From Clostridiales bacterium (GTDB lineage Bacteria; Bacillota; Clostridia; Lachnospirales; Lachnospiraceae), in the NCBI GenBank assembly GCA_029007785.1, contig JAQXIM010000137.1, positions 4,429-68,428 on the forward strand: a stretch of 64,000 bases of DNA, read 5' to 3'. The translations under genes and the position numbers were made by a program. Below the pieces are notes generated by a model. The model was not told the origin of the DNA, did no database searches, and saw nothing but the letters and a program-made list of their open reading frames with translations. Below are positions 4,027 to 24,345 of the stretch, piece after piece; the stretch's first letter is position 1; every line of letters begins with the position of its first letter.

Positions 4027-5409
4027 TTATTCATTTCCGGGAAAGGCCGGGATGGCATTTAAGCTGGGTTTCAGATCCTCGTCGCTGGGAATTTCATCGT
4101 GCATAGTACGATTATTGTACTGTTCATAAGCCAGCATATCGAAATAACCGGTTCCTGTGAGACCGAAAAGGATAGTTTTTTCTTCGCCGGTTTCTTTGCA
4201 TTTCAATGCTTCATCGATGGCAGCGCGGATGGAGTGACTGCTTTCCGGTGCCGGGAGAATGCCTTCGTATTGGGCAAAGATAGTGGCAGCTTCAAATACG
4301 GAAGTCTGCTCTACGGTTCTGGCTTCCATAAAGCCGTCATGATACAACTGAGACAGAATCGGGCTCATGCCGTGGAAACGAAGACCTCCGGCATGGTTGG
4401 GAGAAGGAATGAATCCGCTTCCCAGGGTGTACATTTTTGCCAGAGGGCATACCATACCGGTGTCGCAGAAATCGTATACAAATTTGCCGCGGGTAAAACT
4501 GGGGCAGGAAGCCGGTTCTACGGCAATAAAGCGATAATCTCGTTCGCCGCGCAGTTTTTCACCCATGAAAGGAGCAATCAAGCCGCCAAGATTGGAGCCG
4601 CCGCCGGCACAGCCGATAATAATATCCGGTACAACACCGTATTTGTCCAAAGCTTTTTTTGCTTCCAGGCCGATTACGGACTGGTGAAGCAGTACCTGAT
4701 TCAGTACGCTTCCCAGTACATAGCGATAACCGGGAGCAGAGGTGGCTGCTTCTACTGCCTCGGAGATGGCACAGCCAAGGGAACCGGTGGTACCGGGGTG
4801 TTCTGCCAGAATTTTTCTTCCTACAGCAGTTGTATCGGAAGGGGAAGGCGTTACGGAAGCTCCGTATGTACGCATTACTTCACGGCGGAAGGGTTTCTGT
4901 TCATAGGAAACTTTAACCATGTATACTTTGCAGTCCAAACCGAAATAAGCACAGGCCATGGATAAAGCAGTACCCCACTGTCCGGCTCCGGTTTCCGTTG
5001 TAACACCTTTCAGTCCCTGCTTCTTTGCATAATAAGCCTGGGCAATGGCGGAATTCAGTTTATGGCTGCCGCTGGTATTATTACCTTCGAATTTATAGTA
5101 GATCTTTGCCGGTGTTCCCAATGCTTTTTCCAGGTTGTAGGCACGGACAGTGGGAGAGGGGCGATACGTTTTGTAATATTCCTGAATTTCTTCGGGAATA
5201 GGAATAAAAGCATCGGTATCATTAAGTTCCTGATCAATCAGATCATCACAGAATACACCGGCCAGTTCTTCTTTTGTCATGGGCTGAAGAGTACCGGGAT
5301 TCAGCAAAGGAGCCGGTTTTTCCTTCATATCAGCACGCATATTGTACCAGGAAGTGGGAATTTCTTTCTCTTCTAAGTAGATTTTGTAAGGAATTTTTTT
5401 CTCTGTCAT
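4027..5409 (-). CDS. TrpB-like PLP-dependent enzyme (tryptophan synthase beta, type 2 / TrpB2 family)
   Basis: 460 aa. PLP-lysine motif NNTSGSHKLNSA, glycine loop GCAGGGSNLGG, and the long N-terminal extension typical of TrpB2. Confidence 0.85.
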   Translation of the reverse strand: MTEKKIPYKIYLEEKEIPTSWYNMRADMKEKPAPLLNPGTLQPMTKEELAGVFCDDLIDQELNDTDAFIPIPEEIQEYYKTYRPSPTVRAYNLEKALGTPAKIYYKFEGNNTSGSHKLNSAIAQAYYAKKQGLKGVTTETGAGQWGTALSMACAYFGLDCKVYMVKVSYEQKPFRREVMRTYGASVTPSPSDTTAVGRKILAEHPGTTGSLGCAISEAVEAATSAPGYRYVLGSVLNQVLLHQSVIGLEAKKALDKYGVVPDIIIGCAGGGSNLGGLIAPFMGEKLRGERDYRFIAVEPASCPSFTRGKFVYDFCDTGMVCPLAKMYTLGSGFIPSPNHAGGLRFHGMSPILSQLYHDGFMEARTVEQTSVFEAATIFAQYEGILPAPESSHSIRAAIDEALKCKETGEEKTILFGLTGTGYFDMLAYEQYNNRTMHDEIPSDEDLKPSLNAIPAFPGNE

Positions 5410-5486: not shown

Positions 5487-5750
5487 TAAAAAAGCCCTTA
5501 TCCCATACACGAATTGTGTTGGGACAAGAGCGATAACTCCTGCGGTGCCACCCAATTTGATGCAATGCATCCACTCAAGGCATTCTGACAAATGCCGCCT
5601 TTTGATAACGAAGAGGAACTCCGGCTCACCTACTTTATCTTCAGTTTGCTCTCCGGGACCCATTCCAATGGAGGCTGTCTGCATCGGTCACACCATTCCG
5701 ATACTCTCTGGGAGACAGGGATTCCTTGTACTTACATCCCATCAACGATT
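5487..5750 (-). promoter_or_regulatory. T-box leader (tRNA-sensing riboswitch), probable Trp specifier, controlling the TrpB2-like gene
   Basis: Minus-strand elements are a GA/K-turn (TGATGggatgtaAGTA), an AGAGAG bulge, a GGTGTGA distal loop, GAA-UGG-G (UGG at 5660-5662), and the T-box AAATTGGGTGGCACCGCA (5541-5558). A terminator hairpin (about 5494-5534) and a U-run (5488-5493) follow. Confidence 0.85.
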
Positions 5751-5756
5751 TCCTGC

Positions 5757-8375: not shown

Positions 8376-8699
8376 AATGTTTCGTTTCCTCTCAGACAGA
8401 TTGTGTATCTTCATATACTTTTTCTGTTTTTTATCATAACATGAGAAAAATATCTCCGCAAGTGCTTAGAAATCTCCGGGCTCCGGGTATCCGGAACAGA
8501 TCTTCTTTTATATCTTCTTTTATATAAGATTGGAAATTTCATTATTATTAAAAATGTGATATACTCAAACGAGAATAACGCAGCTCTTTTCATGGCATGG
8601 AGATAAAATTCTCTTGAAACCAATGTCATATCATATATGAGTTGACTGACAAATGAGCTTAAAATGCAAAGTGCGGACAGCAAGAGGAGGGACAAGGAA

Positions 8700-13351: not shown

Positions 13352-13453
13352 GCAATAGGAAAGATGAGGAAGACAAGTATGAAAAAGTGAGAAGGAGATA
13401 CGCCAGCGATTTGTGCCGCAATAGGAAAGATGAGGAAGACAAGTATGAAAAAG
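13352..13453. repeat. 36-nt duplication (period 66 nt) of the SD plus start-codon region of the MoeA-like gene
   Basis: gcaataggaaagatgaggaagacaagtatgaaaaag occurs at 13352-13387 and identically at 13418-13453. Confidence 0.95.
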
Positions 13454-14512: not shown

Positions 14513-15502
14513 ATGAAAGATCAATACGGACGCGCGATTACGTATATGCGCATTTCGATCACAGATCGCTGTAATCTACACTGTCAGTACTGTATGCCTG
14601 GAGAACCAAAACAGATTCCCAGAGAAGAAATTCTTTCCTATGAGGAAATATGTCAGACGGCAGAGGCAGCGGTGAATCTGGGAATCACACATTTTCGTAT
14701 CACCGGCGGAGAACCCCTCGTTCGAAAGGATTGTTTTCGTTTGATCCGGATGCTTCATCAGATTAACGGAGTGGAGCGGGTCAGTATGACAACGAATGGT
14801 GTTCTTCTCTTTTCGTTTATGAATGAACTGGCATCGGCAGGTCTGGATGATGTAAATGTCAGTCTGGATACCCTGAATCGGGGAGAATTTTTACATCTCA
14901 CCGGAAAGGACAGCCTTTCCTCCGTACTGGAAGGAATTGAGGCTGCTGTGGAGAGCGGAATTCCGGTCAAGCTCAATGCCGTCAATCGCCGGGGAATGGA
15001 TTGGAGAAGTCTGGTGTCTTATGCGGAGAGCCGGAAGATTCCCCTGCGTTTTATTGAAATGATGCCCATTGGTCATGGGAAAAATCATATGGGCAGTTCC
15101 AACGAGGAACTGCTGAAACAAATCGAGGAGATTTATGGTCCGGCCAGGCCGGTGGAAAACAGTTCCGATCCTGGAAATTTGATAATGGAAGAACAGGGAA
15201 GAGGACCGGCCCGGTATTATCGTTTTCAGAATTTGAATACGAAAATCGGTTTTATCAGTGCGATTCATCACCGATTTTGTGAAAGCTGCAATCGTGTACG
15301 CTTGTCTTCCACGGGATATCTGAAGGCCTGCCTTTGCTATCAGCAGGGAGCAGATCTTCGGCCGATTCTGAGGGATCCGGCTCAATCTGACGATTTGGTG
15401 AGGGTGATGAGAGAGGTGATTTACCGGAAACCCAGAGAACATGATTTTGACCATATGAAAAACATAACAGAAAAAAAATCGATGAACCGGATTGGCGGAT
15501 GA
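14513..15502 (+). CDS. moaA: GTP 3',8-cyclase (radical SAM, Moco biosynthesis)
   Basis: CNLHCQYC radical-SAM motif, ITGGEPL, and C-terminal CESCNRVRLSSTG auxiliary cluster region. Confidence 0.95.
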   Translation: MKDQYGRAITYMRISITDRCNLHCQYCMPGEPKQIPREEILSYEEICQTAEAAVNLGITHFRITGGEPLVRKDCFRLIRMLHQINGVERVSMTTNGVLLFSFMNELASAGLDDVNVSLDTLNRGEFLHLTGKDSLSSVLEGIEAAVESGIPVKLNAVNRRGMDWRSLVSYAESRKIPLRFIEMMPIGHGKNHMGSSNEELLKQIEEIYGPARPVENSSDPGNLIMEEQGRGPARYYRFQNLNTKIGFISAIHHRFCESCNRVRLSSTGYLKACLCYQQGADLRPILRDPAQSDDLVRVMREVIYRKPREHDFDHMKNITEKKSMNRIGG

Positions 15503-15604
15503 AGACATGGGGATTACGAATGTTTTTTTGATTTTGAGAGTGGGAAGCAGGAACGGCGTTGGATTCATTTGTCAGGAAATTTATGAGATGCAGTAAAGAC
15601 AAAA

Positions 15605-15670
15605 GGATGGGATCAGGATGGAATCAGGACAGGATCAGGACAGGATCAGGATGGGATCAGGAGATAAGCA
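15605..15670. repeat. Six tandem 11-nt units GGAyrGrATCA (GGA-rich), with the last unit supplying the SD of the MOSC gene
   Basis: ggatgggatca ggatggaatca ggacaggatca ggacaggatca ggatgggatca ggagataagca, followed by tt ATG at 15673. Confidence 0.95.
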
Positions 15671-15672
15671 TT

Positions 15673-16113
15673 ATGGGAACGATAAAGGCAATTTGTATCA
15701 GTGAGAAGCGCGGAACGCCCAAATATAAAGTGAACCGTGCAGAATTTGTAAAGGATTGGGGGATTCGCGGGGATGCCCACGCAGGAAACTGGCATCGGCA
15801 GGTCAGCTTTCTTTCTTTTGAAAAGATCGAAGCCTTCCGTGCAAAAGGGGCCCAGGTGGATTTTGGTGCCTTTGGAGAAAATGTGATTGCCGATGGGTTG
15901 GATTTCAAAGAACTGCCGGTGGGAACACGTCTCCGCTGTGGTGATGTGGAATTCGTGATTACACAAATCGGAAAAGAATGTCACAGTCACTGTCAGATTT
16001 TCCGGAGAATGGGAGAGTGTATTATGCCCCATGAAGGTGTATTTGCTGTGGTGGAAAAGGGCGGCTGGATCCAGGTGGGAGATCAGCTGGAACAGCTCCC
16101 CACGATTCGGTAG
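15673..16113 (+). CDS. MOSC domain-containing protein
   Basis: 146 aa. GIRGDAHAG.WHRQVS, GENV...G, and a conserved late Cys region (IGKECHSHC). Confidence 0.8.
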   Translation: MGTIKAICISEKRGTPKYKVNRAEFVKDWGIRGDAHAGNWHRQVSFLSFEKIEAFRAKGAQVDFGAFGENVIADGLDFKELPVGTRLRCGDVEFVITQIGKECHSHCQIFRRMGECIMPHEGVFAVVEKGGWIQVGDQLEQLPTIR

Positions 16114-18005: not shown

Positions 18006-18064
18006 AAAATGTGCGCAGAGAAAAAATCGATTCTTCCATACAAAGAAGAAAGAAGGAGAAATGA

Positions 18065-19858: not shown

Positions 19859-20030
19859 CAGATTTGATGGAGAGTAAAGATGCCGGGAAAAAATATAAGG
19901 ATGGTACAATGATTGGACAAAAACGTGCCGGATTCGATGGAGAATAGGTCTGCCGGGATAAAGTATAAGGATGATACAATAATGAGGCAGAACCGTGCCG
20001 GATTCGATGGAGAGTGAGAATACTGTGGCA
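19859..20030. repeat. 70-nt tandem repeat, about 2.4 copies (roughly 77 percent identity between copies 1 and 2). The third copy runs into the yqeC 5' region.
   Basis: Copies start at 19859, 19929 and 19999 (c[a/g]gatt[t/c]gatggaga...tgccggga...tataaggatg.tacaat...cgtgc). Confidence 0.9.
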
Positions 20031-20816: not shown

Positions 20817-20912
20817 GGATAAAAGGAAACAGAAAGCGAAGGAAATAAAAAGCGACGGAAAACAAGATAGACGGAAAACAAGATAGATGGAAACAGAAAG
20901 GGATAGCGAAAA
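20817..20912. repeat. Purine-rich tract with roughly 16-nt periodicity upstream of moaC (two perfect units plus degenerate units)
   Basis: gacggaaaacaagata occurs at 20854-20869 and 20870-20885. Flanking units are GAnGGAAA-like. ATG is at 20915. Confidence 0.85.
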
Positions 20913-22221: not shown

Positions 22222-23115
22222 ATGATGAAAAGATTATTCAAATTTGTGTTGTCATTAGTTTTGATACTTTCAATGTTTTCTCAGATTGCTTTTTCGCAAA
22301 CCAGGGCTGTTGTTGACGAAAAACAAGAGGTTACAGAATTAAACGAATATGAAAGTTATTGTTATTTTACTCAGACATCTGATGCGGAGCTACTAAATCA
22401 GGGATATTCTTTGAGTTATATTCGAGATATGAAGCAATTTGATTATGAAAAAGCACTATTAGAGCGAGCTACTCTTCCTATTTCCGAACTTAGAGGATAT
22501 GGGTATACAGACGAACAGATAAGGGAGCTAAAAGCATATGCAAATGGGGAAAAAGCATTTGAAGCTATAGCGCAATTTACAGCTGCCAGTTTAAGTGCAG
22601 ATATTACGTTTTCAAGTTATAGCACATCTTCATATGCATTTTCATATTCTTGGACATGGTCTTCTCTGCCTCTGCAGGTATATAAAGATATGGCAGTTAT
22701 GAAATGGAGCGGAATGGCTACTTCAGGTGCTTTATTGGGGACTGAAATTGGTAGTGTTAGTAGCGTAGTAAAATATTACTATACTACTAATGGAAATTAT
22801 TATACTTCGCAATCGGGCGAGGGAACTATAATAGAAAATGGATATTGGATAAAATTTCCATTGAGAAAAATGGATAATAATAATGCGAATTATGTTTGGG
22901 CAAAAAAAGGAACAGTTTATGCTAAGATTAATAAAAGTGGTACAGCTGCTTTAGCTAAAATGCAAGTAACGGCTATTTATGGGCATACAACAAAAAGTGT
23001 TTCTATTACACCGTCGCTAGGTTCAGGAATGACAATATCCTTTAGTAGTAATGACGGATTAGAATTGAAAGGAAATAAGACAAAATACTGTAGTAGTTCT
23101 GGAGTTATATCGTAA
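22222..23115 (+). CDS. Secreted hypothetical protein (signal peptide, S/T/Y-rich beta-type C-terminal part)
   Basis: N-terminal signal MMKRLFKFVLSLVLILSMFSQIAFSQ and a GGAGAAG SD. The codon usage is AT-rich. No family was recognised. Confidence 0.7.
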   Translation: MMKRLFKFVLSLVLILSMFSQIAFSQTRAVVDEKQEVTELNEYESYCYFTQTSDAELLNQGYSLSYIRDMKQFDYEKALLERATLPISELRGYGYTDEQIRELKAYANGEKAFEAIAQFTAASLSADITFSSYSTSSYAFSYSWTWSSLPLQVYKDMAVMKWSGMATSGALLGTEIGSVSSVVKYYYTTNGNYYTSQSGEGTIIENGYWIKFPLRKMDNNNANYVWAKKGTVYAKINKSGTAALAKMQVTAIYGHTTKSVSITPSLGSGMTISFSSNDGLELKGNKTKYCSSSGVIS

Positions 23116-23604: not shown

Positions 23605-24345
23605 GTGATTTCTATAGAAAAGGTACAACAATTTTTTCGTAAAAATGTTATAGTGATTATTATTGGACTGATACTGTTTGGTATCATCTATCGGGATGTT
23701 TTTGTACCAGACATATCCTATGTCGGAGCCCTGTATAGTGAGCGCGAGGGTGAAAAATGGCTTTCCGAAAATTACACGGAGTCATACCAATTACTGTCAG
23801 ATAGAATAGGGTCCCGGTATACTTCTGCTGACAGTATATATTACTATGAGATGGTATTGACAGAGACGTATACTTACCCCAGTCGGGAGACAGAATACAG
23901 AATTCTGTATGCTCTTGCAGCGGATCAGTTAGAGAATGGTGTGAAAACTTCAGGTGCTGCAGATGTTACAATATATTTCATCGCGATGAAACAGTCTGAG
24001 GATGGAAAATGGGAAAGAACCCAGGATATTCAGCTGCAGGATGTGGAGGTCACTCTGATGATGTTTGATCCGGTTCAATTGGAGTCGGTTGCCAGTGACA
24101 CCTGTCTGGTGGAGGAGAAGGACAGCAGGCAAAGCGAACACAAAGTATATTCTGTAAAATCAATGAATCAGAAAGATGCAGATATACAGGAAATATCTTC
24201 ACTGCACGTTACGTATACGACAACAGAACCGTTAAAGGAAGACATGGGGATATTCCAGTTGGATACACGATGGATCCCGACAGTAAATCACAAAAAATCC
24301 CAGACGTTGACGACGGTTTGTTTTCCTTTTTTATTGTGTGAATGA
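23605..24345 (+). CDS. Membrane-anchored hypothetical protein
   Basis: GTG start after a GGAGGAG SD. One N-terminal TM helix (VIVIIIGLILFGIIY). No family was recognised. Confidence 0.55.
   Translation: MISIEKVQQFFRKNVIVIIIGLILFGIIYRDVFVPDISYVGALYSEREGEKWLSENYTESYQLLSDRIGSRYTSADSIYYYEMVLTETYTYPSRETEYRILYALAADQLENGVKTSGAADVTIYFIAMKQSEDGKWERTQDIQLQDVEVTLMMFDPVQLESVASDTCLVEEKDSRQSEHKVYSVKSMNQKDADIQEISSLHVTYTTTEPLKEDMGIFQLDTRWIPTVNHKKSQTLTTVCFPFLLCE

Follow-up and report, generated by a model that had tools for sequence, protein, structure and literature searches.

What is a dense array of GGA-rich 11-nt units doing between two cistrons of a molybdenum-cofactor operon? The array lies in front of a MOSC-domain gene of an uncultured Lachnospiraceae bacterium, and a sequence-only reading had likened its motif density to that of a CsrA-type binding array, while also naming a stack of standby Shine-Dalgarno (SD) sites as a possible role. 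The stretch of DNA that was analysed, called the window in the following, has a length of 64 kb. The host locus is a Mo-cofactor/molybdate-uptake operon in which the genes for a 274-aa protein of unknown function, a MoCF_biosynth (MoeA-like) protein and MoaA are followed by a 170-nt spacer, then by those for MOSC, XdhC, ModA, ModB and ModC, and then by those for YqeC and MoaC. The cistrons on either side of the spacer are as follows:

14513 to 15502, forward strand: moaA, the upstream cistron, with radical SAM and Mob_synth_C domains (domain match)
15673 to 16113, forward strand: MOSC-domain gene, 146 aa, with its ATG at 15673 and a start, MGTIK..., that is common to relatives (domain match and relatives)

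DNA of this organism was found chiefly in gut metagenomes, from the pig and others. Its LeuA is 87-88% identical to that of Lachnospiraceae metagenome-assembled genomes and 84% identical to that of Hominifimenecus. The MOSC protein was a singleton in a set of 5.8 billion proteins, where the next match was 77% identical, and exact-protein look-ups of the MOSC and MoaA of the window returned no record. Two ORFs of the window, at 22222-23112 (297 aa) and 23605-24342 (246 aa), are without a Pfam match. An Rfam search of the window gave only a T-box (5517-5754) at the gathering threshold and no Moco riboswitch (RF01055), and at a permissive threshold the region 15400-15800 yielded a single noise-level match (E=3.1). 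The T-box leader (97.4 bits, reverse strand) is located upstream of a gene for a 460-aa PLP-dependent (PALP) enzyme (4030-5409, reverse strand).

The repeat tract fills the final third of the moaA-MOSC spacer. Tandem Repeats Finder placed it at 15604-15662, with a period of 11, 5.4 copies, 87% matches and a score of 83, and its parts can be listed as follows:

15604 to 15658, forward strand: five full 11-nt units, head to tail, consensus AGGAYRGRATC (sequence and Tandem Repeats Finder)
15659 to 15663, forward strand: truncated sixth unit, AGGAG, which is the SD of the MOSC gene, 9 nt 5' of the ATG (16S-tail duplex of -7.4 to -8.7 kcal/mol)

The units run in the order AGGATGGGATC (U1), AGGATGGAATC (U2), AGGACAGGATC (U3), AGGACAGGATC (U4) and AGGATGGGATC (U5), and then AGGAG. 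Where the sequence-only reading had counted six tandem GGA-rich units, there are five full ones and a 5-nt stub, which does supply the SD, as had been recognized (AGGAG at 15659-15663, 9 nt 5' of the ATG at 15673). The tract is not the entire leader of the MOSC gene, as had been stated, being the last ~70 nt of the 170-nt spacer that follows the moaA stop codon (15500-15502). The count of 11 GGA triplets in 66 nt was correct and compares with approximately 2.2 expected, making the tract the densest GGA cluster of the 64-kb window when both strands are counted. These triplets do not keep the strict 11-nt register ascribed to them, since GGA comes twice per unit, at a spacing alternating between 4 and 7 nt, and not once per 11 nt. 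A 15-nt unit pattern matched five times within the tract, a count that was reached by 0 of 100 shuffles. The tandem repeat before the MOSC gene is thus a real and not a chance feature.

In order to compare alleles of the junction, Logan contigs from independent pig-gut and gut metagenomes were placed on the locus. The five-unit allele is that of the window and of run X1. Runs X3 and X7, which are ~99% identical overall, carry a four-unit allele (U2 to U5, an 11-nt deletion) on contigs that span the tract and both flanks. As the tract is tied to both flanks in contigs of the independent samples X1, X3 and X7, it is not an assembly artefact. An empty allele was found in runs X8 and X10, which come from two different studies and represent the same species at about 97% identity (96-98% over 20 kb). 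In these contigs, 15519/15520 is joined straight to 15673, so that the moaA stop stands 18 nt from the MOSC ATG, and the missing part is the following:

15521 to 15672, forward strand: strain-specific intercistronic segment of 152 nt, made up of 83 nt of unique sequence, the repeat and 9 nt more (missing from the X8 and X10 contigs)

Absence from closely related strains is one half of what the sequence-only reading had named as speaking against a role of the tract, the other half being identical MOSC expression in those strains; this first half is what X8 and X10 display. The tract is dispensable, as same-species strains exist without it and start MOSC 18 nt after the moaA stop, as do most relatives. 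With head-to-tail units of high identity and a copy number that is polymorphic between strains, it has the properties of a variable-number tandem repeat. It does not have those of a classical contingency (phase-variation) locus, as it lies upstream of the SD and no promoter is predicted. Changes in unit number leave the 9-nt spacing from SD to ATG and the MOSC frame unaffected.

The alleles also bear on the proposal that the tract is coding, in the form of a phase-variable N-terminal extension translated from ATG 15583 or 15607 through the tract, with 11-nt steps switching the frame. In the five-unit allele, TTG 15559, ATG 15583 and ATG 15607 do stand in the MOSC frame with no intervening stop. 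However, the upstream SD pairing of ATG 15583 and 15607 is weak (-4.3 and -1.8 kcal/mol, respectively), all relatives have the start MG(T/I)IK right after the SD, and the four-unit allele breaks the frame of the extension and keeps the MOSC ORF intact. We give a coding extension next to no probability, the four-unit allele being the observation that rules it out.

Longer alleles in X1 and X4, which had been suggested by short high-depth unitigs with a U4-to-U2 junction, were withdrawn because satellites of unrelated organisms share the same 31-mers of the tract at depths of >100,000. In runs X18-X24, unrelated organisms are rich in satellites built from AGGACAGGATC-like units, which reach a summed depth of >100,000 in X19. 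Given this satellite DNA, short metagenome unitigs on 15604-15662 need flanking sequence. Comparable 11-mer minisatellites are also present in unrelated metagenome contigs.

Outside the species, the array is not conserved, and the spacers of relatives at the genus and family level are short and free of it. In the three nearest relatives, whose MOSC proteins are 77%, 75% and 73% identical, the spacers measure 92, 41 and 7 nt and contain no repeat, and the array occurred in 0 of 80 more distant species-representative genomes, in most of which the ...IGG-stop of moaA precedes the MOSC ATG by anything from a few nt to some tens of nt. The sites of the tract were looked for in 86 related loci and were absent from all of them. 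Judged from these outgroups, the 152-nt event was probably an insertion in one sub-lineage and not a deletion. An origin of the insert from a mobile element was considered and rejected, as neither the window nor the fetched loci contain a second copy of the segment, plasmids and phages gave no match to it, and its junction shows no microhomology, no letters being shared there. At the same junction, the genome of an uncultured Hungatella (L024, 2959-3006) carries a 16-nt tandem duplication, x2.3, of the moaA 3' end and SD (ACAGATAGGAGGATAA / ACAGACAGGAGGAAAA / ACAGATGGGA). This independent duplication shows that the moaA-MOSC junction is prone to slippage.

Other arrays of the window differ between strains as well. 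In strain X10, 16 nt are missing at 20873 and a further 12 nt at 8500. The contig of strain X8 skips 19892-19966, which corresponds to one 70-nt copy fewer. From this strain variability of further arrays it follows that slippage is general in the species. The 12-nt repeat ATCTTCTTTTAT (x2.2) lies at 8500-8525, with one unit fewer in X10, a 70-nt repeat (x2.2) occupies 19861-20015 between modC and yqeC, and two adjoining 16-nt arrays, AAGGAAACAAAAAGCG (x2.4) and GACGGAAAACAAGATA (x2.5), are located at 20823-20893 in the leader of moaC (ATG 20915). In the modA-modB spacer (18008-18023), strain X10 carries inserted sequence, namely single nucleotides (C, G) and a block of 20 nt, AATTAATTCTTCCATGCAAG. 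At 13352-13453, a duplication with a 66-nt period takes in the region around the SD and start of the gene for the MoeA-like protein, AATAGGAAAGATGAGGAAGACAAGTATGAAAAAG occurring twice, and gives rise to a decoy start 5' of ATG 13430. A further array, at 1840-1958, repeats the 9-nt unit AAAGGAAAC, which is almost devoid of T, approximately 13 times, has an 18-nt super-period and reaches the SD AAAGGAGAA of a gene for a YbaK/tRNA_edit-domain protein (ATG 1962); most of its units are weak anti-SD binders. The idea that all junction repeats of the window are SD arrays was dropped, as phased strong anti-SD minima were found in the MOSC tract only; the wider pattern in the window is therefore one of frequent junction duplications and not of SD arrays.

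As RNA, the tract has no stable structure. The fold of the spacer has a z of -0.04, and 56% of the tract shuffles fold equally well. No G-quadruplex was predicted by ViennaRNA with G-quadruplexes enabled. As complementary partners within the window, only the tract itself and chance-level matches with 3 mismatches were found, and an inverted-repeat scan of the window gave only short 11-nt pairings with the tract at chance level. What the units do share is complementarity to the 16S 3' tail. Against GAUCACCUCCUUUCU, which is the Firmicute consensus tail and not that of the organism itself, the duplex minima of U1 to U5 are -12.0, -7.6, -9.0, -9.0 and -12.0 kcal/mol in an 11-nt phase, compared with -7.4 to -8.7 kcal/mol for the true MOSC SD against the same consensus. 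Of all window positions, 3.6% are at or below -9 kcal/mol. By direct reading, 9 of the 11 letters of the unit AGGAUGGGAUC coincide with those of AGGAGGUGAUC, the ideal extended SD. If the consensus tail is assumed, the tract is an unstructured, 16S-tail-complementary stretch upstream of a ribosome-binding site, as in standby or multi-SD leaders. The proposal of a stack of standby SD sites thereby receives computational support, each unit having a predicted duplex energy of -7.6 to -12.0 kcal/mol with the 16S 3' tail and following the 11-nt phase. The tract also contains start codons of its own, which open a predicted upstream ORF:

15618 to 15704, forward strand: predicted uORF of 28 codons, out of frame (+1), AUG at 15618 and stop UGA at 15702-15704 (prediction only)

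The predicted uORF covers both the SD and the start codon of MOSC, and its internal AUG at 15651 gives a 17-codon ORF that ends at the same UGA (15702-15704). At SD distance, U1 is predicted to pair for AUG 15618 and U4 for AUG 15651, with -12.7 and -9.0 kcal/mol, respectively.

The density of GGA words is also what suggests a CsrA-type platform, where CsrA dimers sitting on CAGGA words, one of them over the SD, would repress or activate translation of MOSC, or where the spacer would titrate CsrA. Many Lachnospiraceae are flagellated and carry csrA-fliW. The tract contains 8 AGGA, 7 CAGGA and 2 exact, CsrB-type CAGGA[UAC]G words, so that multiple GGA cores stand in an A(N)GGA or CAGGA(U/A/C)G context, and one GGA lies inside the AGGAG of the SD. 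CAGGA(U/A/C)G is the repeat of CsrB, and E. coli CsrA has been reported as an activator of moaA translation (PMC7652899). The latter report tempers the view that either of the proposed roles would be unusual inside a Moco operon. On the other hand, no hairpin of the predicted minimum-free-energy fold presents GGA in its loop, whereas 51 of 55 SELEX ligands of CsrA present GGA in a hairpin loop (PMC7652899). There is also no match to the ACA..GGA consensus in the tract, and the GGA spacing of 4-7 nt would probably be too tight for joint occupancy of neighbouring sites. The tract is found in no relative and is missing from same-species strains. Furthermore, the 64-kb window contains no csrA or fliW, as tblastn with approximate B. 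subtilis CsrA and FliW-like queries gave no match in it. Like CsrB/RsmZ sponge RNAs and CsrA-regulated leaders (glgC, hag; PMC7652899), the tract packs many CAGGA(N)G-like words into a short RNA, places a GGA over the SD and belongs to a pathway with a CsrA link in E. coli (moaA). Unlike them, it has its GGA outside of hairpin loops and 4-7 nt apart, lies inside an mRNA spacer and not in an sRNA gene, and is not conserved. The resemblance that had been drawn from motif density therefore holds for the CAGGA words and the GGA on the SD, but not for hairpin presentation, the ACA..GGA consensus, spacing or conservation, and we consider CsrA binding to be an unlikely explanation.

The period of the tract might alternatively matter at the level of DNA. 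Four GATC sites and five direct repeats at 11 bp, i.e., about one helical turn, could form a protein-binding or methylation array, such as a site for a response regulator of the OmpR type or an operator for MOSC-xdhC-modABC that is sensitive to GATC methylation. The strict 11-bp period would fit helical phasing, and the four GATC sites within 45 bp are the densest such cluster of the window, compared with 0.33 expected per 75 bp. Yet GATC is otherwise ordinary across the window (observed/expected 0.83) and has been lost from U2, no promoter is predicted nearby, and the tract is dispensable and not conserved. A DNA-level element is, in our judgement, very improbable.

We posit, as somewhat the better-founded account, that the tract is a young, copy-number-variable 11-nt minisatellite within a 152-nt insert of one sub-lineage, and that it was born by slippage and serves as a dispensable, ribosome-capturing spacer. 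It may have arisen by slipped-strand duplication of an SD/start-like sequence, as the unit AGG-ATGGGA-TC joins an SD core to ATGGGA, the word with which MOSC starts. That the units consist of SD/start sequence may be coincidence, or such sequence may have seeded them. Neither a sigma-70-like promoter nor an intrinsic terminator is predicted in the moaA-MOSC spacer, and for this reason the tract is presumably transcribed as part of a polycistronic mRNA. The locus was looked for in RNA runs and turned up in none of them. The resulting RNA would be purine-rich and without stable structure, and it would carry five phased strong complements to the 16S tail, which makes an effect on ribosome traffic the most likely one. 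The 30S subunits might be captured upstream of the true SD, in a standby or decoy position, and captured subunits may start at the two in-tract AUGs and translate the short out-of-frame uORF over the MOSC start. Changes in unit number, produced by slippage from strain to strain, would then adjust MOSC translation in either direction and not switch it. We take the tract to be, most likely, a variable-number repeat of an ordinary sort whose effect is at most a tuning of translation, and its most likely function is a modest effect on MOSC translation.

Engineered leaders bear on the direction that such an effect may take. In Bacillus, tandem ribosome-binding sites gave a gain in output only if every site came with its own start codon in frame and the SDs were spaced by 15-21 nt, and SD arrays without start codons gave none (PMC9723656). 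These requirements for spacing and frame suggest that an 11-nt array with out-of-frame AUGs may be neutral or inhibitory and not stimulatory. The main rival to a modest effect on translation is a purely neutral role, in which the repeat would be debris of slippage, tolerated by the intercistronic spacer and without measurable consequence for the expression of MOSC. This is consistent with the loss of the whole segment in same-species strains, the variable unit number, the similar variation of other window arrays, the satellites that matching 11-mers form in unrelated organisms and the lack of gain from SD-only arrays in Bacillus (PMC9723656). However, ribosomes would hardly be expected to overlook five anti-SD sites of -7.6 to -12 kcal/mol that stand just 5' of a start codon, in combination with two AUGs that have SDs of their own and an ORF extending over the start of MOSC. 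We regard neutrality as a serious but clearly less probable explanation than the ribosome-capturing spacer.

A more far-reaching version of ribosome capture would make the tract an evolvable translation dial. The units, as mimics of an extended SD, would capture 30S subunits and feed the uORF over the MOSC start, and slippage (0, 4, 5... units) would reset the ratio of MOSC, and perhaps of XdhC and ModABC, to MoaA between strains. The junction duplications before the moeA-like gene, yqeC and moaC would act likewise, and together they would retune the stoichiometry of the cofactor-maturation operon at the strain level in this selenium/molybdenum cluster; a variant in which the tract titrates CsrA is included here. 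We view this proposal, as a whole, as doubtful.

Among known systems, mycobacterial MIRU are intergenic variable-number tandem repeats of 40-100 nt in operon spacers. The tract resembles them in its head-to-tail intercistronic units within an operon, its strain-variable copy number, its presence or absence between close strains and a gene that works without the element. It differs from them in its unit of 11 nt instead of 40-100 nt, its restriction to a single locus with no other copy in the window, and its SD-like units without coupled stop and start codons. With ribosome standby sites and engineered tandem leaders (PMC3936740; PMC9723656) it shares a single-stranded stretch 5' of the true ribosome-binding site and several anti-SD sites able to recruit 30S subunits. 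Unlike the engineered tandem leaders, which needed in-frame starts and 15-21 nt (PMC9723656), it has an 11-nt spacing and AUGs that are out of frame, and its net effect may for that reason even be negative.

Start-proximal arrays of short direct repeats are represented by TAACTGA heptamers in Beggiatoaceae (PMC4679880) and by G-rich heptamers in Xanthomonas and Nostoc (PMC4692102). The roles proposed for them are the regulation of translation or the binding of CsrA, S1 or Csp (PMC4679880; PMC4692102). The MOSC tract likewise has short tandem units immediately 5' of a start codon, but while the heptamers form genome-wide families with one conserved word, it is confined to one locus with an 11-mer of its own, and the other junction repeats of the window are unrelated to it. 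In the tlpB leader of Helicobacter pylori, a variable G-repeat is the target of the sRNA RepG (PMC8295292). The two cases are alike in that regulation after transcription could be graded by the variable length of a simple repeat in the leader of an mRNA; they are unlike in that the MOSC tract has no complementary C/U-rich partner in the window and is built from an 11-mer and not a homopolymer. The tract is a real but ordinary object, namely a lineage-specific, dispensable and copy-number-variable repeat in an operon spacer.

The present evidence is mainly a caution that GGA-rich tandem tracts before start codons look CsrA-like by composition alone, and comparison of strains is a quick way to learn if a tract of this kind can be dispensed with. 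If translation is tuned by the repeat, the locus would be a natural case of SD-mimicking repeats that set cistron ratios in an operon of a gut commensal, and it would provide standing variation in these ratios between strains of one species.
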